From: Escherichia phage phiWAO78-1
Sequence record: MW331437.1
Direction: 5' to 3' (one strand)
Length of the DNA: 44,551 bases
Under the pieces are notes generated by a model. The model saw only the letters and a program-made list of their open reading frames with translations, was not told the origin of the DNA and did no database searches. Shown one piece after another: positions 3,719 through 37,865 of this stretch. Made by a program: the position numbers and the translations under genes. The stretch's first letter is position 1; every line of letters starts with the position of its first letter.

Positions 3719-3958
3719 TCAGAAGTGCCTGACTGGTTGTTTAAACTTCCAGTCACAATCTACATGTTTAATAGCACCTTTCGCAACAAGACTGTCTATA
3801 AATTCCGGCCCTGAATTTGTCTTGTACCATGTGTATCTGTTGCCGACTTTTACGTTTGGGAGGCTGTGGTACACAACATCACCAACCACCATAAAAGAAA
3901 CACCGATAGCCCCTTTTTCTGCATAAAGTTTTTTAGCAATACCCCTCATGTATAACAT
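3719..3958 (-). CDS. Hypothetical protein (accessory cassette A)
   Basis: 79 aa ORF on opposite strand to the flanking structural genes, second gene behind promoter element A. Confidence 0.4.
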   Translation of the reverse strand: MLYMRGIAKKLYAEKGAIGVSFMVVGDVVYHSLPNVKVGNRYTWYKTNSGPEFIDSLVAKGAIKHVDCDWKFKQPVRHF

Positions 3959-3969
3959 CTCCTGCGTAG

Positions 3970-4164
3970 TTAGTAAGGTAAGGCCTTGCGAATTGTATAC
4001 CCATATCCGAGGTAGCCGTTTTCCTCTTGCATAGCGGAGGCACGCAGCAGAGCAGCATTCTCGCCTTTTACTACAGCTACCACATAATCCGTAGAGTCTG
4101 GGCCGTTTTCTACAACTCCATACGCCTGTACGTTCTTGGTGGTAAGTTCATATGTGTTAGTCAT
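3970..4164 (-). CDS. Hypothetical protein (accessory cassette A)
   Basis: 64 aa ORF; ATG 4164 preceded by AGGAA SD and the conserved promoter element A. Confidence 0.45.
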   Translation of the reverse strand: MTNTYELTTKNVQAYGVVENGPDSTDYVVAVVKGENAALLRASAMQEENGYLGYGYTIRKALPY

Positions 4165-4195: not shown

Positions 4196-4228
4196 TGAAT
4201 AGTACCCTATTATATTGGGGTCTGCAAA
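4196..4228 (-). promoter_or_regulatory. Class-1 conserved promoter-like element, copy A (TTGCAG-N17-TACTAT with AATAG-N4-CTATT dyad)
   Basis: 33-bp element shared with copies at 6082, 15681, 37611, 39002; about 35 nt upstream of the minus-strand ATG at 4164. Confidence 0.6.
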
Positions 4229-5315: not shown

Positions 5316-5776
5316 TGATGGGCTTTTTCAAAGTAACCGATGTACCGTCGCGTCGTGTTGTCCAGTACGCCCGCGTGTCTGGCTCCGGTGAGAACGTTGT
5401 GTTTATTGAAGATGAAAGTGTACTTGGTACACCGGTAGACGATATGCCGTTTGCGGATAAGACCGGTATCGCGCTACCAGCGGCTGGTATGCTTTATGAG
5501 ATTCCGTATCTGGCTGATGCTGGCGACGTGTACTTCTCTGTGCAACCGAAAGACACTGAACTGGCTGACGGCAGCGCAACCATCACTGTCGAAGTTAAGG
5601 CGGGCAAAGCGCCATACGCGCTTACCTGGTACAAAGACGGCAAGGAAGTGGTAAACGCCCCGGAAGAGGCTTTGTCTCTGACGGTTAATGTAGTCGGTGA
5701 ATACTTCGTTAAAGTTACTGATGCTGATGGCGTAGAGGCAGTTAGCAAAGCGGCGAAGGTCACTAAACCGGAATAA
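5315..5776 (+). CDS. Ig-like domain-containing structural protein (putative)
   Basis: C-terminal motif YALTWYKDGKEV...GEYFVKVTD resembles immunoglobulin-like domains; start overlaps stop of upstream gene (TAATGATG). Confidence 0.45.
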   Translation: MMGFFKVTDVPSRRVVQYARVSGSGENVVFIEDESVLGTPVDDMPFADKTGIALPAAGMLYEIPYLADAGDVYFSVQPKDTELADGSATITVEVKAGKAPYALTWYKDGKEVVNAPEEALSLTVNVVGEYFVKVTDADGVEAVSKAAKVTKPE

Positions 5777-5777
5777 A

Positions 5778-5805
5778 CTGAGGCCCCGAAAGGGGCCTCA
5801 GTTTT
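5778..5805. terminator. Bidirectional rho-independent terminator (CTGAGGCCCC-GAAA-GGGGCCTCAG)
   Basis: 10-bp perfect GC-rich stem with T-runs on both strands, between convergent genes ending at 5776 and 5804. Confidence 0.75.
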
Positions 5806-6055
5806 AATACCCAGTCTCTTGGGTTAAGTTAATCTCTTTATTCCAGACGTTTCGGTCATACTTTTCACGAATCTGGCGCATACTTCTGCCGACCGCGGCG
5901 GATAGAGACGTATCCCCATCTTCTTGCGCGTCCAATTGAATCCGCCGAAGCCCAATATACGCCGAAATATCGCCGCGTAATTCGGCCTGTTCATACTCTT
6001 TTTTAAGAAAAGAACCAAGGTCCTGTACACGATGTTTTGCTGGTTTCGTAATCAT
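5804..6055 (-). CDS. Hypothetical protein (accessory cassette B)
   Basis: 83 aa ORF; ATG 6055 with GAGGAGAG SD about 25 nt downstream of conserved promoter element B. Confidence 0.45.
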   Translation of the reverse strand: MITKPAKHRVQDLGSFLKKEYEQAELRGDISAYIGLRRIQLDAQEDGDTSLSAAVGRSMRQIREKYDRNVWNKEINLTQETGY

Positions 6056-6081: not shown

Positions 6082-6114
6082 TGAATAGTACCCTATTATA
6101 TTGGGGTGTGCAAA
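6082..6114 (-). promoter_or_regulatory. Class-1 conserved promoter-like element, copy B
   Basis: TTTGCACACCCCAATATAATAGGGTACTATTCA on the minus strand; the best match to the family consensus. Confidence 0.6.
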
Positions 6115-11647: not shown

Positions 11648-12060
11648 TGGGCTACTTTGAGGACTTAACAAAAGCGTTTGATGTGCCGCTGGTAGCCTTC
11701 GGAACCACCAACGGCATCAAGGTTGCGCTTGAAAACATCGACGCACCTACATCAACCGATACGCCGTATCTGGCGAGTTACATGTTGCTGGCAGATACGG
11801 AACAGGCGGATTTGTTCTTCACGGAACAACGCTCTGGTATTTATCAGGTAGACATTAACTACGCATCGGTGAAAGGTAGCGCGTCAATCAATAAAATGGC
11901 AGACTTACTTAACACGGCATTCAAAGCAGGTAAGTCATTTTCACGTAACGACATCTGCGCCGAGGTTCAATCGGTTAGCCTGGGGCCGCTGATTGTAGAA
12001 AACGGATGGGCCAAACGACCATTGTCAATTAACTTTATTGCATTCACCAAGAGGCTGTGA
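11644..12060 (+). CDS. Hypothetical tail protein (possible tail terminator)
   Basis: 138 aa ORF immediately upstream of the putative major tail gene. Confidence 0.35.
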   Translation: MMGYFEDLTKAFDVPLVAFGTTNGIKVALENIDAPTSTDTPYLASYMLLADTEQADLFFTEQRSGIYQVDINYASVKGSASINKMADLLNTAFKAGKSFSRNDICAEVQSVSLGPLIVENGWAKRPLSINFIAFTKRL

Positions 12061-13229
12061 ATATGGCTACAACTCCTTTTAAGGGCGCGAATACCGCGCA
12101 ATTCTATGTGGCGGAAACTACCCCGGGCGTAACACCTACTAACCCGGTCTGGTCGCCATTGCGTAACACTGGCGGTGTTCCAGCGGTAACCCGCGATGCG
12201 CTGACTTCCAACGAACTCGACGGCAGCCGAGAAACTACATCCATCCGCACCGGTAACAAACAGGTTAGCGGGGAGTACGCCATCGAACTTAGCTCACGTA
12301 GCCAGGATGATTTCCTTGCGGGTGCTATGACTTCTACGTGGCAGGATGGGGTAGAGATTACGGGTGCCGAAATTACGGTCGCCCCAGCAGGTAAAACATT
12401 CACCCGCGCTGCCGGTAGCTTCATTACTGACGGTGTAGAAGTTGGCGACCTGATTGCGTTCACCGACTTAACCGGCGACAACGCAAAACCGTTTATCGTT
12501 ACCGCTGTTTCCGACCTTGTAGTTACGGGGGCGGGCATTCAGCACACGCTGACAGCAGAGACTGTAACCACCGACGCTAAAACTGGCGATAAACTGGAAA
12601 CCGGTAACGCGTGTAAGACGTTCTCCATCCTGACATGGTTCAAAGGCCAGTGCGGCAACCCAGACGCGTACATGTTGACCAAAGGCGTGGAAATCTCCGG
12701 TTTCACCATTGAACAGGCCGTAAACGCGATGGTGACAGGCAGCTTCCCGTTCATCGGTCTAAGTCAGGAAATTCTTTCCGAACCGCCGGCAGGTTCCGAC
12801 TTCTCTCGGGTCACATTCACTGACGAGCCGTTCTCATCTGTAGATGTGTCTGTTTTCGACGGTTCTACGCCGTTGCGTTGCGATACTCTGACCATCACCA
12901 ACGACAACAGCGCATCCGCGCAGTTCGAACTTGGCAACAGTAGCGTTGCGTTCGTGGAACGTGGCCGCGCGGCTAACACCTTCTCCATCTCCGGGAAGCT
13001 GTACGACATGGCGATGATTCAGAAGTTTATCGACGAGCAGCAGGTAGAGATTAACTCTATTCTGGCGGGGGTAAACGGGGCTATGTCTTTCAGTTTGAAA
13101 CGTGCAGAGCTTACGGCGGTTACACCAGAGATTGGCGGACCTGAGTCAATCACTCAGTCCATTGAAGGCCAGGCTACTGGCAACCAGTACCAGTCGTCTA
13201 TTGTCATCCAGCGTATCACCTACGCATAA
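12057..13229 (+). CDS. Major tail protein (putative)
   Basis: 390 aa Thr/Gly/Ala-rich ORF, last gene before a bidirectional terminator and upstream of the chaperone/tape-measure genes. Confidence 0.55.
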   Translation: MNMATTPFKGANTAQFYVAETTPGVTPTNPVWSPLRNTGGVPAVTRDALTSNELDGSRETTSIRTGNKQVSGEYAIELSSRSQDDFLAGAMTSTWQDGVEITGAEITVAPAGKTFTRAAGSFITDGVEVGDLIAFTDLTGDNAKPFIVTAVSDLVVTGAGIQHTLTAETVTTDAKTGDKLETGNACKTFSILTWFKGQCGNPDAYMLTKGVEISGFTIEQAVNAMVTGSFPFIGLSQEILSEPPAGSDFSRVTFTDEPFSSVDVSVFDGSTPLRCDTLTITNDNSASAQFELGNSSVAFVERGRAANTFSISGKLYDMAMIQKFIDEQQVEINSILAGVNGAMSFSLKRAELTAVTPEIGGPESITQSIEGQATGNQYQSSIVIQRITYA

Positions 13230-13233
13230 AACT

Positions 13234-13260
13234 AAGGCCCCTTTTGGGGCCTTTCTTCTT
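13234..13260. terminator. Bidirectional rho-independent terminator (AAGGCCCC-TTTT-GGGGCCTT)
   Basis: 8-bp stem with T-tracts on both strands between convergent genes ending at 13229 and 13259. Confidence 0.7.
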
Positions 13261-13813
13261 ACAAACCTAATTTTAAAGCAATGTCTATAACGTTCGATTT
13301 AACGTCACCCGGTATGATATATGTGTCGCAATCTTTTACACCATCAACATCATACAAGTAACCACGGCTATCCCCGTCAAACGTATAGCCGTCTCGGTGC
13401 AAGCGAACAATTCGCACTTCATGCCCAGCGGCGACGATAGGAGCCACTTCACTGGCGAACCCACCGTCGGACACTACAAAAACTTCGTCGCCGTCGGGCA
13501 AGTTTTCAGCAAGATACTTACCGAAATAATCATCGCCGAATACCGGTTTAATGAATTGTTCAGAGATAGCAATCATGAATTGACGGCGAGACAAACCATT
13601 AAGGAATCCTTCTGGCTTTTCTTTCCGCGCCCGGTCGTCGTAGCCGTCGAGAAACTCGTGGTAAGCATCCGGGCCTAACGCTGCCAGAGCGATATTGAAC
13701 ATTGGATTCTTGAAACTGGTAGTTCCTTTCGCAAAGCCCATTTCTACCAGTGCCATAGCAAGTGTGTCTTTCCCGCAACCCGCAGGGCCATTAAGAATAA
13801 TTACATTAGCCAT
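13259..13813 (-). CDS. P-loop nucleotide kinase, deoxynucleoside-monophosphate-kinase-like
   Basis: N-terminal Walker A LNGPAGCGKDT at residue 7; size and GKDT loop resemble phage dNMP kinases (T4 gp1 type). Confidence 0.55.
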   Translation of the reverse strand: MANVIILNGPAGCGKDTLAMALVEMGFAKGTTSFKNPMFNIALAALGPDAYHEFLDGYDDRARKEKPEGFLNGLSRRQFMIAISEQFIKPVFGDDYFGKYLAENLPDGDEVFVVSDGGFASEVAPIVAAGHEVRIVRLHRDGYTFDGDSRGYLYDVDGVKDCDTYIIPGDVKSNVIDIALKLGL

Positions 13814-14298
13814 TATTTATCGCTCCCATGTGATTTTAAGCGTGTAGAGTTCCCGTTACAGTCGTATTCAGTAACCGCGTGCGTCGTGATTCCTAAGCCA
13901 CGGAAATGCTTAATCACCGCTGGCGAGTCGTCGAATGCACACAAGATTCTTTCCAGTCCGATAGCGCGCAACACCTCTTCTTTAATTACGATGTCTTTTC
14001 TGTTGTCGTGTTTGCTACGCATGATTAACTGATAAAATTCGACGCGGTGGCGCTGCAGCCACATTCTGGTTTCTTTTTCTGCATCATCACTGCGACCGGT
14101 TAAAATAATAACGGCGTATCGCCGATTAAGGGCGTTACATAGTTCGATATTATCTCTAATTGGCTCATCGTCTTTGCACGCCATGTTAAATGGCCTCCAA
14201 GCCCATGTTTCGCCGTAGTTATCTTTTGGCAGCAGGTGTAAACGATGTGTACCATCTGCTAATGTCCCGTCTAAATCGAAAATTACAATATCTTTCAT
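13813..14298 (-). CDS. HAD-superfamily phosphatase/hydrolase
   Basis: N-terminal motif I IFDLDGTLADG (DxDGT nucleophile motif) typical of HAD phosphatases. Confidence 0.6.
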   Translation of the reverse strand: MKDIVIFDLDGTLADGTHRLHLLPKDNYGETWAWRPFNMACKDDEPIRDNIELCNALNRRYAVIILTGRSDDAEKETRMWLQRHRVEFYQLIMRSKHDNRKDIVIKEEVLRAIGLERILCAFDDSPAVIKHFRGLGITTHAVTEYDCNGNSTRLKSHGSDK

Positions 14299-15317
14299 CC
14301 CAGCATCTCCGGTGAAATAGTTAAACGCGCAACCTCGCCATATTTGGCGCTATAAGTAATTACATTTGCGCTACGGCCCGACATCCATCCGCCGCGGGAG
14401 GCGTAGGCGTCTTTAGCCGCTAAGGTGCGGTGTTGCTCAACAATCATGTTACGGCTTTCTACAATCTTCTGATGGTGCAGGTGACCTACGTGTGCGTAGC
14501 TGTAGACGCTCTCGCCGAACGCTTTGCGGAACTTGGCAATCATAACTGGTTCGATAGCGTCGAATCGCGCCTTGTGTCCGTGGGTAAAGAACAGCGTCGT
14601 TTTGCCGTGCTGCACCATCTTGTAAACATCCGGCGACGTATCGACGAACACACGCGGCTCATTGTCGTACAGCGTACTGAACATCTCAGCCAACCAAATC
14701 ATACCCGATTCGTCGTGGTTCCCTTGCACGATAAGCAGTCGGACGTTTTTATGTTTAACGAGCGCCATATCAACAACACGGCGTACCATACGAATCATGT
14801 AGCGGACAAGTTTCTGATAACGGGTGTCGGCGTCAAGAGCGTGACCGCTTGCAGGTGTAACGGCAACCAGACTATCGAAGTGCGCGAAGTCGCCTAGCAG
14901 GTTAATAACTCCGGTCCCAGCGTCCGGCGCTTTCTGAAACGCCTCGTCGAACCATCGGGAGAACAGGCCCTCCGCGATTTTCATATCCCAGTCGTCGCCG
15001 CTCTCGTCGGCCCAGGCCAGCATACCGAGATGGAAATCAGACACAGTGTAAAGATTGAGTAGTTTATCGTCGCGTTTGGCGCGAATGGTTTTAACAGGTG
15101 CAACGGGGGTAATCTCTGACTTCATGCCTTCAATTACGGCTTTCATCAACTCGACCTGACGTTCGGCGTCGGTTTCTGTCTTAACCCATTGCAACTTAGT
15201 ATTGCCGAGTTCGTCCACCAGAGACGACGTCCCCTTAATCTTGTAGCCGTCCGGGACAAGGTGACTAACGTCGCGACCGTGACCTACGCCTTTCTTGGCC
15301 AGCTCGCTTTCGGACAC
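14295..15317 (-). CDS. Calcineurin-like metallophosphoesterase
   Basis: Ordered motifs D-x-H (VSDFHLG), GD (LLGDFAHFD), GNH[DE] (VQGNHDE), FTHGH and GHLHH; GTG start; roughly 80-aa N-terminal extension before the first motif. Confidence 0.7.
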   Translation of the reverse strand: MSESELAKKGVGHGRDVSHLVPDGYKIKGTSSLVDELGNTKLQWVKTETDAERQVELMKAVIEGMKSEITPVAPVKTIRAKRDDKLLNLYTVSDFHLGMLAWADESGDDWDMKIAEGLFSRWFDEAFQKAPDAGTGVINLLGDFAHFDSLVAVTPASGHALDADTRYQKLVRYMIRMVRRVVDMALVKHKNVRLLIVQGNHDESGMIWLAEMFSTLYDNEPRVFVDTSPDVYKMVQHGKTTLFFTHGHKARFDAIEPVMIAKFRKAFGESVYSYAHVGHLHHQKIVESRNMIVEQHRTLAAKDAYASRGGWMSGRSANVITYSAKYGEVARLTISPEMLG

Positions 15318-15423
15318 GAATTACGCGGTCTGAGATGCCGTATTTACGGGCTATATCGATAGTTTTAACTCCGGCGTTCAATTCTTCCTGTAATTGTTCG
15401 TCGGTTATTTTCTTCTGGGCCAT
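15265..15423 (-). CDS. Small HTH-containing protein (52 aa), overlapping the 5' end of the metallophosphoesterase ORF
   Basis: ATG 15423 with GAGGAAG SD; sequence TIDIARKYGISDRVIRVRKRA looks like a helix-turn-helix; different frame from 14295-15317. Confidence 0.3.
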   Translation of the reverse strand: MAQKKITDEQLQEELNAGVKTIDIARKYGISDRVIRVRKRAGQERRRSRSRR

Positions 15424-15461
15424 GCTTACTTCCTCGTGTTTAGGATTTGTCCTATACTAGC

Positions 15462-15653
15462 TCACTTCTCGTTAACATTCGAGTTGCATGCCCAGATTAA
15501 AATAAAGACCCACGGCAGCAGAATCCAACCAAGAAACAGATTGGCCATGAATATCGCCAACTTCGCTTTATGGTTGCGGAAATACGCAACCAGGAAAGGT
15601 GCGAAATAAGCGAGCAGCGCAAATAGAATTAGGGAAACCGGTAAACTTGACAT
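15462..15653 (-). CDS. Superinfection-immunity-like small membrane protein (Imm family-like)
   Basis: 63 aa, two hydrophobic segments; motif YFRNHKAKLAIFMANLFLGWILLPW resembles the superinfection immunity protein family; first gene behind promoter element C. Confidence 0.55.
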   Translation of the reverse strand: MSSLPVSLILFALLAYFAPFLVAYFRNHKAKLAIFMANLFLGWILLPWVFILIWACNSNVNEK

Positions 15654-15680
15654 TTTAAACCCCTTCGTTGTCGGTGTAAG

Positions 15681-15713
15681 TGAATAGTACCCTATTATAT
15701 TGGGGCGCGCAAG
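15681..15713 (-). promoter_or_regulatory. Class-1 conserved promoter-like element, copy C
   Basis: CTTGCGCGCCCCAATATAATAGGGTACTATTCA on the minus strand, about 30 nt upstream of ATG 15653. Confidence 0.6.
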
Positions 15714-15819
15714 TAATGTGATAGAATAATTTTGCGCCTAGTGTCGCACACGAAAAGCGGGTGGTTCCCGTCTGGCGCAACACCATCAACCAGTAACCTC
15801 TTAACCAAAGGATTAAAGA

Positions 15820-16236
15820 ATGAAACTTTCTGATTTTTATTTCGAAGAGAAAGCACTGGTAGGCAAGAAGATGCCGATTCTGCTACCAAACGGCGAAGAC
15901 TCCGGTGAGTGGCTTAATGTTGTAGGCCCTGATGCGGATGCCGCCGTTAAAGCGGGGCGGGCTTTCATTATCGCGTACCGCCGCGGGTTGGCGCGTTTTG
16001 AAGAACTGGAAAAAGCCGCCAAAGAATCCGGCGACTATACTGAATATAACCTGGCGGTTAACGAACTGGCGGAAGACCTCAACCGACAACTCGCATCGGA
16101 AGTCGTAAACGGCTGGAGCTTTGATGAGCCTTTCTCTAAGGAAGCGCTTAACAAATTGCTGGATCAGTTCAAGGCATTGGGTACACAGGTGGCGGCGTTC
16201 CATAACGACGAGCGCAAAGCATTACAGGAAAAGTAG
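15820..16236 (+). CDS. Tail assembly chaperone (putative)
   Basis: 138 aa acidic ORF immediately upstream of the tape measure gene. Confidence 0.5.
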   Translation: MKLSDFYFEEKALVGKKMPILLPNGEDSGEWLNVVGPDADAAVKAGRAFIIAYRRGLARFEELEKAAKESGDYTEYNLAVNELAEDLNRQLASEVVNGWSFDEPFSKEALNKLLDQFKALGTQVAAFHNDERKALQEK

Positions 16237-24833: not shown

Positions 24834-24841
24834 ATAAAACT

Positions 24842-24867
24842 AAGGCCCCTTTCGGGGCCTTTTCTCT
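24842..24867. terminator. Bidirectional rho-independent terminator (AAGGCCCC-TTTC-GGGGCCTT)
   Basis: 8-bp stem plus T-run between the convergent late and replication modules. Confidence 0.7.
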
Positions 24868-27838: not shown

Positions 27839-28138
27839 TTAACTATAATAGTTCGCTATTAGGTCGTCAACTTGTTTAAACGATCCGACGACAAAAACAT
27901 TTGCGCCACGTTTACGCATACGCTCATGTTCTCGCAGCTGGTGCGGGTCAGGCTTCGTGTTTTCGTCTTTCTTAACCTCGACGAACCAGATGATGCCGCC
28001 GGGGAGGATTACTAGCAGGTCAGGAGCGCCGGAGCGCCCCTCGAAGGAAAGTTTACGAACGAGGCCACCAATGGCCTCGAATCGCTCTTTTGCGTATTTC
28101 TGTACGCGCCCCTCTTTAGTCATGAGCGCAGAACCCAT
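27839..28138 (-). CDS. VRR-NUC domain nuclease
   Basis: 99 aa with PD-(D/E)XK-type core (APDLLVILPGG...FVEVKKDEN...HQ) characteristic of VRR-NUC proteins. Confidence 0.65.
   Translation of the reverse strand: MGSALMTKEGRVQKYAKERFEAIGGLVRKLSFEGRSGAPDLLVILPGGIIWFVEVKKDENTKPDPHQLREHERMRKRGANVFVVGSFKQVDDLIANYYS
27842..27870 (-). promoter_or_regulatory. Class-2 promoter H: TTGACG-N17-TATAGT with AATAG-N4-CTATT dyad in the spacer
   Basis: Near-consensus sigma70 hexamers at optimal spacing, read on the minus strand; about 30 nt upstream of ATG 27808. Confidence 0.6.
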
Positions 28139-31533: not shown

Positions 31534-31591
31534 CTTGATTTCTCGCTTTTAGGTTTCGTCTACTCCGGGAGCTGCCCGGCCAGTGATTATA

Positions 31592-31620
31592 AATATAATA
31601 GCTAACTATTCAGGTGTCAA
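31592..31620 (-). promoter_or_regulatory. Class-2 promoter F: TTGACA-N17-TATATT with AATAG-N4-CTATT dyad in the spacer
   Basis: Consensus -35 and near-consensus -10 at 17-nt spacing on the minus strand upstream of 30907-31533. Confidence 0.6.
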
Positions 31621-34118: not shown

Positions 34119-34149
34119 TTGTTTCTCTCCTCTCGTTTGGTATGGGTTA

Positions 34150-34179
34150 ACTATAATAGCTAACTATTCAGGATGTCAA
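34150..34179 (-). promoter_or_regulatory. Class-2 promoter G: TTGACA-N18-TATAGT with AATAG-N4-CTATT dyad in the spacer
   Basis: Consensus -35 and near-consensus -10 on the minus strand; divergent from the XRE-type regulator gene. Confidence 0.6.
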
Positions 34180-37610: not shown

Positions 37611-37643
37611 TTGCACACCCCAACATAATAGGATACTATTCAC
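37611..37643 (+). promoter_or_regulatory. Class-1 conserved promoter-like element, copy D
   Basis: TTGCACACCCCAACATAATAGGATACTATTCAC on the plus strand about 30 nt upstream of the first gene of the rightward small-ORF array. Confidence 0.6.
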
Positions 37644-37673
37644 TTATCGGAACGATACAGAGGAGTGAGGGTT

Positions 37674-37865
37674 ATGTTTAAGAAGGGTCAGTTGGTTAAA
37701 TGCGCCGACGGTAAACACGGTGTGATTGAATTAAAATCTGCTTTATTTCCGGGAGAGTACGTAGTTACTGTGCAAAAGGTGAGAGGAGTAAATTCGGTGG
37801 TATACGTAGCGGAAGAGAATTTAAAACTAATCGGCAACAATTTTAAATTCAAAGGGGAGAAGTGA
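37674..37865 (+). CDS. Hypothetical small protein
   Basis: ATG 37674 with GAGGAGTGAGGG SD (ORF open from GTG 37665). Confidence 0.4.
   Translation: MFKKGQLVKCADGKHGVIELKSALFPGEYVVTVQKVRGVNSVVYVAEENLKLIGNNFKFKGEK

Follow-up and report, generated by a model that had tools for sequence, protein, structure and literature searches.

The genome of Escherichia phage phiWAO78-1 carries, between its major tail gene (12057-13229) and a tail chaperone gene (15820-16236), a cassette of leftward genes encoding a small membrane protein, a metallophosphoesterase (MPE), a HAD phosphatase and a P-loop kinase, and the question is what such enzymes do in the middle of a tail module. A first-pass annotation had described an accessory operon of five genes and had offered three roles for its enzymes: nucleotide salvage, the healing of cleaved nucleic acid ends, and the destruction of cyclic-nucleotide immune signals. 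Here we establish the anatomy, family relationships, fold, conservation and linkage statistics of the cassette. The DNA analysed, hereafter the window, is sequence record MW331437.1 (44,551 nucleotides), a complete genome of Kagunavirus (Guernseyvirinae) that is approximately 90% identical to those of K1G and RP180, with which the flanking tail genes are syntenic.

The cassette is a genuine leftward operon in the genome of a K1G-like coliphage, comprising four genes rather than five, and it shares 87–91% nucleotide identity with the Kagunavirus genomes K1G, RP180 and fTaEco01. All genes lie on the minus strand; in order of transcription these are an Imm-like small membrane protein of 63 aa (15462-15653), a HTH-metallophosphoesterase (14295-15423), the HAD phosphatase, of 161 aa with the motif DLDGT (13813-14298), and the kinase, of 184 aa with the P-loop GPAGCGKDT (13259-13813). 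Read from the sequence, the HAD start overlaps the MPE stop codon (ATGA) and the kinase start overlaps the HAD stop codon (TAATG), and MPE, HAD and kinase are predicted to be translationally coupled. The corresponding genes of K1G (ORF18-21), RP180 (gp19-21) and fTaEco01 (TE1_016-019) have the same position, order, orientation, promoter element and terminator. The boundaries of the cassette, its promoter element, open reading frames, enzyme motifs and bidirectional terminator all lie where the first-pass annotation had placed them, and its four protein-family calls were sustained by matches to Imm_superinfect, the phrog_704 MPE family, HAD_PNKP and the phrog_139 kinase family.

A putative promoter region (15681-15722, minus strand) precedes the operon, as judged from a consensus scan (score 10/12), repeat copies and conservation in relatives. 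Its conserved block, TTGCGCGCCCCAATATAATAGGGTACTATTCA, spans 15712-15681 and can be read as a sigma-70 promoter in two ways, ATCACA-17-TATAAT (15722-15694) or TTGCGC-17-TACTAT (15712-15684); it also includes a palindrome, AATAG-N4-CTATT (15696-15683). A 19-nt core of this element, CCCCAATATAATAGGGTAC, has three exact minus-strand copies at 4202, 6088 and 15687, and a fourth on the plus strand at 37618 with two mismatches, giving four copies in the window where none is expected by chance. Alignment of the four copies places a start codon (ATG) 25–35 nt downstream of each, and a 25-nt version of the element is kept exactly 5' of the cassette in relatives. At the distal end lies a bidirectional intrinsic terminator common to the cassette and the major tail gene. 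This hairpin, at 13234-13253, contains eight pairs, of which six are G-C; it has T-runs on each strand and a folding energy of -20.4 kcal/mol (z = -3.55). Similar hairpins occur at 5772-5805 and 24834-24867.

The fifth gene of the first-pass annotation, a 52-aa HTH open reading frame, proved to be the N-terminal domain of the MPE. This frame (15265-15423) overlaps the 340-aa MPE frame (14295-15317) and matches positions 1-48 of phrog_704, while the longer frame matches positions 43-389; the overall match of the MPE to phrog_704 reaches 2e-153. HTH and MPE form a single 1131-nt coding sequence in RP180, K1G and fTaEco01, and the protein has 376 aa in all 120 of the nearest database homologues except two of 406 aa; no relative examined has a separate conserved HTH frame, the domain always being continuous with the MPE in the same reading frame. 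Unlike these intact genes, that of phiWAO78-1 lacks two bases and falls into two frames. Pairwise alignments with the 14 close relatives amenable to alignment place one missing base between 15311 and 15310 and the other between 15305 and 15304 (a frameshift site at 15304-15311, minus strand), where relatives read CCG[T]AAAGCG[A]AGC with the two deleted positions 6 nt apart. Adding back two bases (CCGTAAAGCGAAGC) would restore an intact 376-aa gene. No viral contig in an IMG/VR search carries the two-deletion allele. Programmed frameshifting is unsupported, the lesion being present in no relative; two single-base losses that leave the frame unrestored and that no relative shares look instead like error or recent damage. 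The MPE gene of phiWAO78-1 is broken or mis-sequenced, and the deletions could be either sequencing error or a recent mutation.

The five metal-binding motifs of the MPE superfamily (DxH, GD, GNH(D/E), H and GHxH) are present in the window as DFH, GDFAH, GNHD, THGH and GHLHH, and are invariant in 140 homologues, as are the catalytic residues D130, H132, D179, N236, H237, H282 and H317. The protein falls short of the Pfam gathering scores for Metallophos (24.3 bits against 27) and Metallophos_2 (19.6 against 21.5), so that superfamily membership rests on motifs and fold. The fold is the beta-sandwich of MPEs, and its best matches are the DNA nucleases PolD-DP1, SbcD and Mre11, at 12–17% sequence identity, with the cNMP phosphodiesterase Rv0805 ranking below them. 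Motif II, GDF(A/L)H, appears similar to the GDLFH motif of Mre11. Unlike Mre11, SbcD and archaeal DP1, the phage protein lacks a capping domain and an OB fold, having instead an N-terminal HTH and beta-hairpin, and the model ends with the MPE core; no gene for a Rad50/SbcC partner is annotated in RP180. The N-terminus weakly resembles HTH domains of the GerE/LuxR/FixJ type (E = 0.018 and 0.0044). A fold search of BFVD returned only uncharacterised phage proteins, phmmer and hmmsearch comparisons of the MPE and the kinase with PDB sequences gave only P-loop matches or noise, and a single-sequence AlphaFold model of the MPE (pLDDT 40) was useless. Our literature searches found no assayed member of phrog_704, phrog_415 or the subfamily of the window kinase, and nothing on metallophosphoesterases in Kagunavirus, or on gene 2.5 of T1 in host DNA degradation.

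The profile matches of the HAD protein identify it unambiguously as a stand-alone phosphatase of the T4 PseT (Pnkp) type. It matches HAD_PNKP (PF25109) at 5e-19, with 69.3 bits against a gathering score of 27.6, and in the PDB it matches Pnkp1 (4xrp, 2.6e-6) and T4 Pnkp (1ltq); its family aligns with residues 202-298 of T4 PseT by hhalign (probability 97.6%, E = 4.6e-12), and the homology to the PseT phosphatase domain includes the SGR and D.RKD..KEE motifs. In contrast to PseT, the phosphatase of phiWAO78-1 is a separate polypeptide, the adjoining kinase is of a type other than Pnk, and no partner ligase was detected. The kinase matches the dNMP kinase family phrog_139 at 3e-45 and is probably a distant relative of T4 gp1, a link of moderate strength. 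The two belong to the same PHROG (profile positions about 82-260) and have in common the GKDT P-loop and the DR.E and S.R motifs; hhalign of the kinase and gp1 families spans 129 columns (probability 79%, E = 1.6e-5), reaching through the DR.KE and S.R motifs, whereas only 26 P-loop columns align with the kinase of T4 PseT. Both T4 gene 1 and the window gene are embedded among structural genes. The window kinase is some 60 residues shorter than gp1 and falls below the Pfam DNMK model (PF21448), which gp1 matches at 3e-107: DNMK is absent from its Pfam matches at E ≤ 0.1, and six homologous kinases encoded by other phages likewise all fail to match at E ≤ 0.05. The 63-aa Imm-like protein matches Imm_superinfect (PF14373) at 1.3e-12, with 47.9 bits against a gathering score of 27.9, and phrog_1039 at 1.9e-22; its homologues in K1G and fTaEco01 carry the same Imm-type annotation, making it a candidate superinfection-exclusion protein.

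The first-pass annotation had treated the MPE as part of an accessory cargo. On its distribution, however, it is not accessory cargo but an old and widely conserved phage gene, usually found without the HAD or kinase. We found HTH-MPE in 2,052 phage records and 4,629 50%-identity clusters, and tblastn matches come from phages of Escherichia, Klebsiella, Salmonella, Vibrio, Campylobacter, Rhodobacter and Flavobacterium; a published count puts it in 508 of 522 Drexlerviridae. Some 60 of 80 MPE loci have neither HAD nor kinase within 6 kb, and the T1 genome has its MPE at 40.8 kb but HAD and kinase at about 5 kb. The MPE adjoins lysis cassettes in T1, Webervirus, a Vibrio phage and RcCWillis (see also PMC13164509), and antiterminator Q or NinB genes in other contigs, and the slot downstream of it is occupied in relatives by HNH homing endonucleases, Ant or small open reading frames. 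The HNH genes that adjoin the MPE in T1, Jerseyvirus and a Vibrio phage were also weighed as functional partners and dismissed; those scanned, in T1 and Jerseyvirus, combine HNH_3 with AP2, as is typical of free-standing homing endonucleases. In T1, one HNH gene also lies between HAD and kinase.

The distal half of the cassette behaves differently, and here the suggestion that relatives carry other cargo at this locus was borne out. HAD and kinase are missing from 4 of 12 loci whose MPE is 94–99% identical, and Jerseyvirus has an HNH gene, a hypothetical gene and Ant in their place. Of 80 kinase loci, 69 have HAD immediately 5' of the kinase, with a phrog_704 MPE upstream in 31, and the order MPE-HAD-kinase recurs in Kagunavirus, in Webervirus KW1 and in the SP6-like phage Era103, where the trio is flanked by the exonuclease/endonuclease VII genes on one side and by the DNA ligase gene on the other. 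Elsewhere, kinase neighbours include dUTPase, thymidylate synthase, nucleases and ligase. HAD and kinase thus form a tight, mobile two-gene unit, and at least three families of phages carry it. The 'DNA repair exonuclease - PNK - dNMP kinase' genes of Drexlerviridae (PMC13164509) and gp26-28 of Era103 are homologous trios in the same order, with 41–48% identity in HTH-MPE; unlike that of phiWAO78-1, they lie outside the tail module and are not preceded by Imm, the former standing before the lysis cassette and the latter in a DNA-metabolism block before ligase. Aeromonas phage P2 has a further trio with an MPE of another family, phrog_221. No homology between our MPE and the phosphoesterases of Aeromonas P2 and Marinomonas CB5A, both phrog_221, was detected by hhalign; these are different families, and the P2 trio is thus analogous rather than homologous. 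The kinase neighbour annotated as 'DNA polymerase exonuclease subunit' in Vequintavirinae was also considered as an example of the trio and set aside, being RNase-H-like and not an MPE.

From this anatomy we infer the substrates, expression timing and physiological role of the cassette, and our preferred reading, to which we give an even chance of being correct, is that the operon is an early module for DNA breakdown and dNMP recycling. Host polymerase would transcribe this leftward operon of a virulent Kagunavirus from the sigma-70-type promoter of the four-copy class, and the Imm-like membrane protein would provide superinfection exclusion. The 376-aa protein, with its LuxR/GerE-like HTH, would act on DNA as a nuclease or phosphodiesterase like Mre11, SbcD or DP1, cutting or trimming host DNA or replication and recombination intermediates; HAD would take 3'-phosphates off ends, mononucleotides or oligonucleotides; and the kinase would convert 5'-dNMPs to dNDPs, destined for phage DNA synthesis via host Ndk. 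The order of the pathway would then be the order of the genes (MPE, HAD, kinase), with HAD and kinase a mobile pair that the phage can do without and that raises the supply of precursors. Among the three roles first offered, nucleotide salvage is best supported, end-healing has been weakened and cyclic-nucleotide destruction is unsupported; the first-pass annotation had set its proposal against the case that these are ordinary conserved nucleotide-metabolism genes in relatives, and homology largely favours the latter.

There are published precedents for such a module. In Drexlerviridae, PNK and dNMP kinase rank next in frequency to the 'DNA repair exonuclease', and they have been suggested to broaden the replication module and improve the supply of nucleotides (PMC13164509). 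Gp48 of mycobacteriophage A10ZJ24, an early-expressed MPE with phosphodiesterase and DNase activity, degrades host DNA (PMC12287305), providing a functional precedent; it has no detectable sequence relationship to the phiWAO78-1 protein beyond the superfamily, in keeping with mycobacteriophages being outside the ten commonest hosts of MPE tblastn matches, and it has neither an HTH nor HAD or kinase partners. Counting against the salvage scheme are the broken reading frame of the MPE in phiWAO78-1 and the failure of the kinase to match Pfam DNMK. Known nucleases of the MPE type leave 3'-OH and 5'-P ends, which leaves the scheme with no demonstrated source of 3'-phosphates for a PseT-type phosphatase.

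The main rival, which we consider unlikely, is a split end-healing system, in which HAD would supply 3'-phosphatase activity, the P-loop protein 5'-kinase activity and the MPE the role of a 2',3'-cyclic phosphodiesterase or end-trimming nuclease, repairing DNA nicks or cleaved tRNA produced by host nucleases before sealing by host LigA or RtcB, or by a phage ligase where one exists. The unambiguous Pnkp type of the phosphatase fits this reading, as does the very tight, coupled pairing of HAD with kinase, matching two activities that are fused in T4 Pnkp; the Pnkp of C. thermocellum likewise joins kinase, MPE and ligase modules. The kinase itself argues otherwise: its alignment with PseT is confined to the P-loop while that with gp1 is far longer, and, compared by eye, the position of the Pnk catalytic Asp some 20 residues past the P-loop appears vacant. 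An ATP-dependent DNA ligase gene directly follows the kinase in 11 of 80 kinase loci, including Era103; however, in Era103 the trio has been inserted into an SP6-type backbone of which the ligase is part, and T7 likewise keeps its ligase near a nucleotide kinase. No ligase was found in the window by tblastn with two phage DNA ligases and T4 RnlA (best E = 0.13), nor is any annotated in RP180, and reports describe Guernseyvirinae as sensitive to ApeA, a defence system that cleaves tRNA. Distinctly unlikely, in our estimation, is that the core role of HTH-MPE is unrelated to HAD and kinase, being the processing of replication or recombination intermediates or of concatemers, or regulation at the early/late boundary, and that their adjacency reflects a permissive insertion site for accessory genes. 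The majority of MPE loci without either partner, the distant location of the MPE in T1, its proximity to lysis, Q or NinB genes in other phages and the variable slot downstream all favour this; indeed, since most HTH-MPE genes lack HAD and kinase, the core role of the MPE need not be salvage. Yet three phage families share an identical three-gene order, complete with its coupled stop and start codons, and an MPE of another family stands beside the same pair in Aeromonas phage P2, which argues for a functional linkage of MPE with HAD-kinase.

Counter-defence is a further candidate, in which the phosphatase and kinase, with the MPE, would clear DNA-breakdown products or signalling nucleotides. 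In this broad form, which takes in cyclic-nucleotide destruction, we judge it very improbable; that the three proteins either erase alarm nucleotides or, together with a host ligase, heal ends as three polypeptides is a slightly better prospect, and still improbable. The alarm nucleotides may be m6-dAMP, sensed by the host system PUA-Cal-HAD, and 5'-phospho-dinucleotides, sensed by ApeA, both freed by phage-induced DNA degradation (preprints). HAD and kinase are accessory and mobile, occupying a variable slot beside Imm and Ant genes, and pairs of MPE and HAD are known in defence systems. Against this, there were no PADLOC family matches, and the fold is that of an MPE, with nucleases outranking Rv0805; to our knowledge, the known anti-CBASS and anti-Pycsar enzymes have other folds. 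Guernseyvirinae are, as noted, reported sensitive to ApeA, and the Tunavirinae phage Bas12 to PUA-Cal-HAD.

The cassette is already known, in that the same gene names are annotated in over 200 phage genomes, and its counterpart in Drexlerviridae has already been treated in the literature. The present analysis contributes a useful correction, namely that there are four genes and not five, and that the MPE gene of this isolate is broken or mis-sequenced. HTH-MPE is among the more widespread phage enzymes, and we found no published biochemical assay of it; for the phosphatase-kinase unit, the choice between dNMP salvage and end-healing bears on well over a thousand phage genomes.

The cassette and the first 25 kb of the window matched several hundred Guernseyvirinae phages by megablast, the best matches being the Kagunavirus genomes RP180, BUCT825, K1G and K1ind1-3, at approximately 87–91% identity and with the same gene order; hence, the window represents the complete 44.5 kb genome of a K1G-like virulent siphovirus. 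As annotated in RP180, the genome has a rightward structural module running from terminase to tailspike, followed by a leftward replication module and, last, by rightward small genes and lysis genes. The cassette (13234-15713, minus strand) has the major tail gene (12057-13229) on one side and the tail chaperone gene (15820-16236) on the other. Its four minus-strand ORFs, for an Imm-like small membrane protein (15462-15653), a metallophosphoesterase, a HAD phosphatase and a P-loop kinase, all have strong homologues. The ORFs, hairpin and repeated promoter element listed in the first-pass annotation were all present where it had placed them, and the operon is real; its boundaries and gene families were correctly described there.

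That annotation counted five genes, but only four are present, since the 52-aa 'HTH ORF' (15265-15423) and the 340-aa metallophosphoesterase (MPE) ORF are two parts of one gene. They match positions 1-48 and 43-389 respectively of the phrog_704 profile; RP180, K1G and fTaEco01 have a single 1131-nt CDS in this region, and the nearest 120 homologues in a collection of 5.8 billion proteins are all 376 aa long except two of 406 aa. Pairwise alignments, which were possible for 14 close relatives, show that two single bases are missing from the window, 6 nt apart (gaps 15311/15310 and 15305/15304), where relatives read CCG[T]AAAGCG[A]AGC; with two bases fewer, the reading frame is not restored. Combined, the two ORFs encode the native protein less about two residues, with 96% identity. 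An exact-pattern scan found no IMG/VR contig carrying the lesion; it reflects either a sequencing error confined to this site or a mutation of very recent date. Fragmentary or truncated HTH-MPE proteins recur in public databases (P0122, P0159, and BFVD fragments from phiJLA23, Salmonella phage 36, KpV79 and Jk06), so the window is not the only sequence in which this gene has been frameshifted or mis-sequenced. The MPE stop overlaps the start of the HAD phosphatase gene (ATGA), and the HAD stop that of the kinase gene (TAATG), so the three genes are translationally coupled.

HTH-MPE is widespread: tblastn recovered it from 2,052 phage records (1,958 at no less than 80% length coverage), with hosts including Escherichia, Klebsiella, Salmonella, Vibrio, Campylobacter, Rhodobacter, Ruegeria and Flavobacterium, and an exhaustive HMMER search returned 4,629 clusters at 50% identity. 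Nine residues are invariant across 140 representatives (D130, H132, G178, D179, N236, H237, H282, G314 and H317), and the family is under selection as an active enzyme. An AlphaFold model built from the 140-sequence alignment was confident (pLDDT 93.4) and has three parts: a domain of three helices at the N-terminus (residues 8-44), then a beta-hairpin with a helix (61-102), and finally the MPE core (119-376). Matches of the N-terminal domain to HTH domains of the GerE/LuxR/FixJ type were weak but consistent. Unlike Mre11, SbcD and PolD-DP1, the nucleases closest to it in fold, the modelled phage protein has no capping domain, and the RP180 annotation includes no Rad50/SbcC-like partner gene. 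Fold and architecture are best read as those of a putative DNA-directed phosphodiesterase or nuclease with its own DNA-binding domain.

The HAD protein (13813-14298) exceeds the Pfam HAD_PNKP cut-off of 27.6 with 69 bits and has PDB matches to Pnkp1 and T4 Pnkp. Its family aligns with T4 PseT residues 202-298 at a probability of 97.6%, and the alignment takes in the SGR and D.RKD..KEE motifs; its sequence identifies it as a stand-alone PseT-type phosphatase. The kinase (13259-13813) matches the same region of phrog_139 (3e-45) as does T4 gp1 (1.8e-65). Comparison of a 72-member kinase profile with a gp1 profile of seven members gave an alignment of 129 columns (79% probability, E 1.6e-5) that covers the GKDT P-loop, DR.(K)E and S.R motifs, while alignment with T4 PseT was confined to 26 P-loop columns. 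The kinase did not reach the Pfam DNMK model; it is, on profile comparison, a distant gp1 relative with putative dNMP substrates. T4 gene 1 (L094 4650-5375), which encodes the dNMP kinase, likewise lies in a run of tail and head genes (57A, 1, 3, 2, 4), paralleling the position of the window kinase inside a structural module.

Across 80 kinase loci, HAD lies directly upstream of the kinase in 69, with a phrog_704 MPE ahead of the pair in 31. In seven loci the kinase comes after a phrog_221 MPE, and in 11 (L142, L148, L159 and eight others) a ligase gene follows the kinase. The MPE-HAD-kinase order recurs in Webervirus and in the SP6-like podovirus Era103, where the insertion has exonuclease/endonuclease VII genes on one side and the DNA ligase gene of the backbone on the other. 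Era103-like podoviruses have four consecutive, tightly packed genes for HTH-MPE, HAD, kinase and ATP-dependent DNA ligase (Era103 gp26-29), a composition that recalls kinase-phosphoesterase-ligase repair enzymes. Among 80 diverse IMG/VR loci, HAD adjoins the MPE only in Kagunavirus-like loci and three others. The pair is dispensable within Guernseyvirinae, being absent from 4 of 12 loci with 94–99%-identical MPE and replaced in a Jerseyvirus by HNH, hypothetical and Ant genes. In T1 it is split by an HNH gene and lies among left-end small genes, far from the MPE.

A lysis cassette adjoins the MPE in T1, Webervirus, a Vibrio phage and Rhodobacter phage RcCWillis, and an exonuclease-holin-endolysin-spanin arrangement is persistent in 508/522 Drexlerviridae (pangenome analysis, PMC13164509). 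In several unrelated IMG/VR contigs (L038, L040, L044 and others) an antiterminator Q gene follows HTH-MPE, with NinB genes nearby. Phage lambda encodes an MPE-family phosphatase of its own, NinI, at the corresponding position; NinI is unrelated to HTH-MPE. HNH genes lie directly 3' of HTH-MPE in T1, a Jerseyvirus and a Vibrio phage, as well as between the T1 HAD and kinase genes (L005 5207-5689; L008 4628-5098; L182 5465-5959; L006 5241-5750). Those 3' of the MPE in T1 and the Jerseyvirus encode HNH_3 + AP2 proteins of homing-endonuclease type; the HNH genes of the Vibrio phage and of the T1 HAD-kinase interval were identified by annotation. The conserved MPE and HAD/kinase genes look like homing targets.

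The 'class-1 promoter element' of the first-pass annotation is a genuine repeat: its 19-nt core occurs exactly at 4202, 6088 and 15687 on the minus strand, and with two mismatches at 37618-37636 on the plus strand, upstream of ORF 37665-37865; the number expected is zero. When the four copies are aligned, each has the conserved block TTGC...CCCCAAYATAATAGGRTACTATTCA, followed 25-35 nt downstream by a ribosome-binding site and a start codon, and the 25-mer upstream of the cassette is exactly conserved in Kagunavirus relatives. The block can be read as ATCACA-17-TATAAT or, from conserved positions only, as TTGCNC-17-TACTAT. The palindrome AATAG-N4-CTATT, present in each of the four copies, is a possible operator. 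We infer an early, host-polymerase promoter class, which the position of the plus-strand copy fits, at the head of a rightward small-gene block in a low-GC (0.43) divergent control region. RNA-seq of one Kagunavirus assigned the Imm gene to the temporal class of the DNA polymerase and methylase genes (PMC12645636), although the time classes are coarse and carry little weight. The terminator hairpin (13234-13253; 8 pairs, 6 of them G-C, with T-runs on both strands) is far more stable than shuffled sequence (z = -3.55; 0/200 shuffles as good).

Two further small leftward cassettes lie within the rightward structural module, each behind an exact core copy: one (core 4202-4220) carries ORFs 3970-4164 and 3719-3958, and the other (core 6088-6106) ORF 5804-6055 and a terminal hairpin at 5772-5805, of the same family as 13226-13259. 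Among their products, only the 64-aa protein had a family match (phrog_16707, function unknown). A second repeat family (TAAMTATAATAGCTAACTATTCAGG) occurs within the leftward replication module at 27840-27864, 31590-31614 and 34148-34172; it too contains the palindrome, is written in the opposite orientation to the module's genes, and may represent another class of promoter or operator.

The evidence is best fitted by an early DNA-breakdown and precursor-supply module, to which we give about an even chance, in which the MPE nuclease would act first, then HAD as a 3'-phosphatase and finally the dNMP kinase. This reading draws on the kinase's affinity to gp1, on its neighbours elsewhere (dUTPase, thymidylate synthase, exonucleases, endonucleases and ligase), on a precedent from a mycobacteriophage, whose MPE breaks down host DNA (PMC12287305), and on the sole published opinion on the Drexlerviridae counterpart, whose authors suggest that PNK and dNMP kinase extend the replication module and improve nucleotide supply (PMC13164509). 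One weak point is that the MPE occurs mostly without the HAD-kinase pair. Another is that the ends normally left by MPE nucleases are 3'-OH, so that the scheme does not account for the phosphatase's substrate.

The main rival, a split Pnkp-like end-healing system, would account for the tight pairing of phosphatase and kinase and for the ligase genes that follow some kinases; we consider it improbable given the type of kinase, the backbone origin of the Era103 ligase and the lack of a detectable ligase gene in the window genome or of an annotated one in RP180. Nothing positive speaks for counter-defence through nucleotide clearance, which includes the earlier suggestion that the MPE destroys cyclic-nucleotide signals: there were no PADLOC matches, the MPE combines an HTH with nuclease-like fold neighbours, and preprints report these phage groups to be sensitive to ApeA and PUA-Cal-HAD. 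The cassette shows no sign of being a novel type of system: Kagunavirus genomes carry it as a standard feature that is already annotated, and it has close counterparts in Drexlerviridae and Era103.
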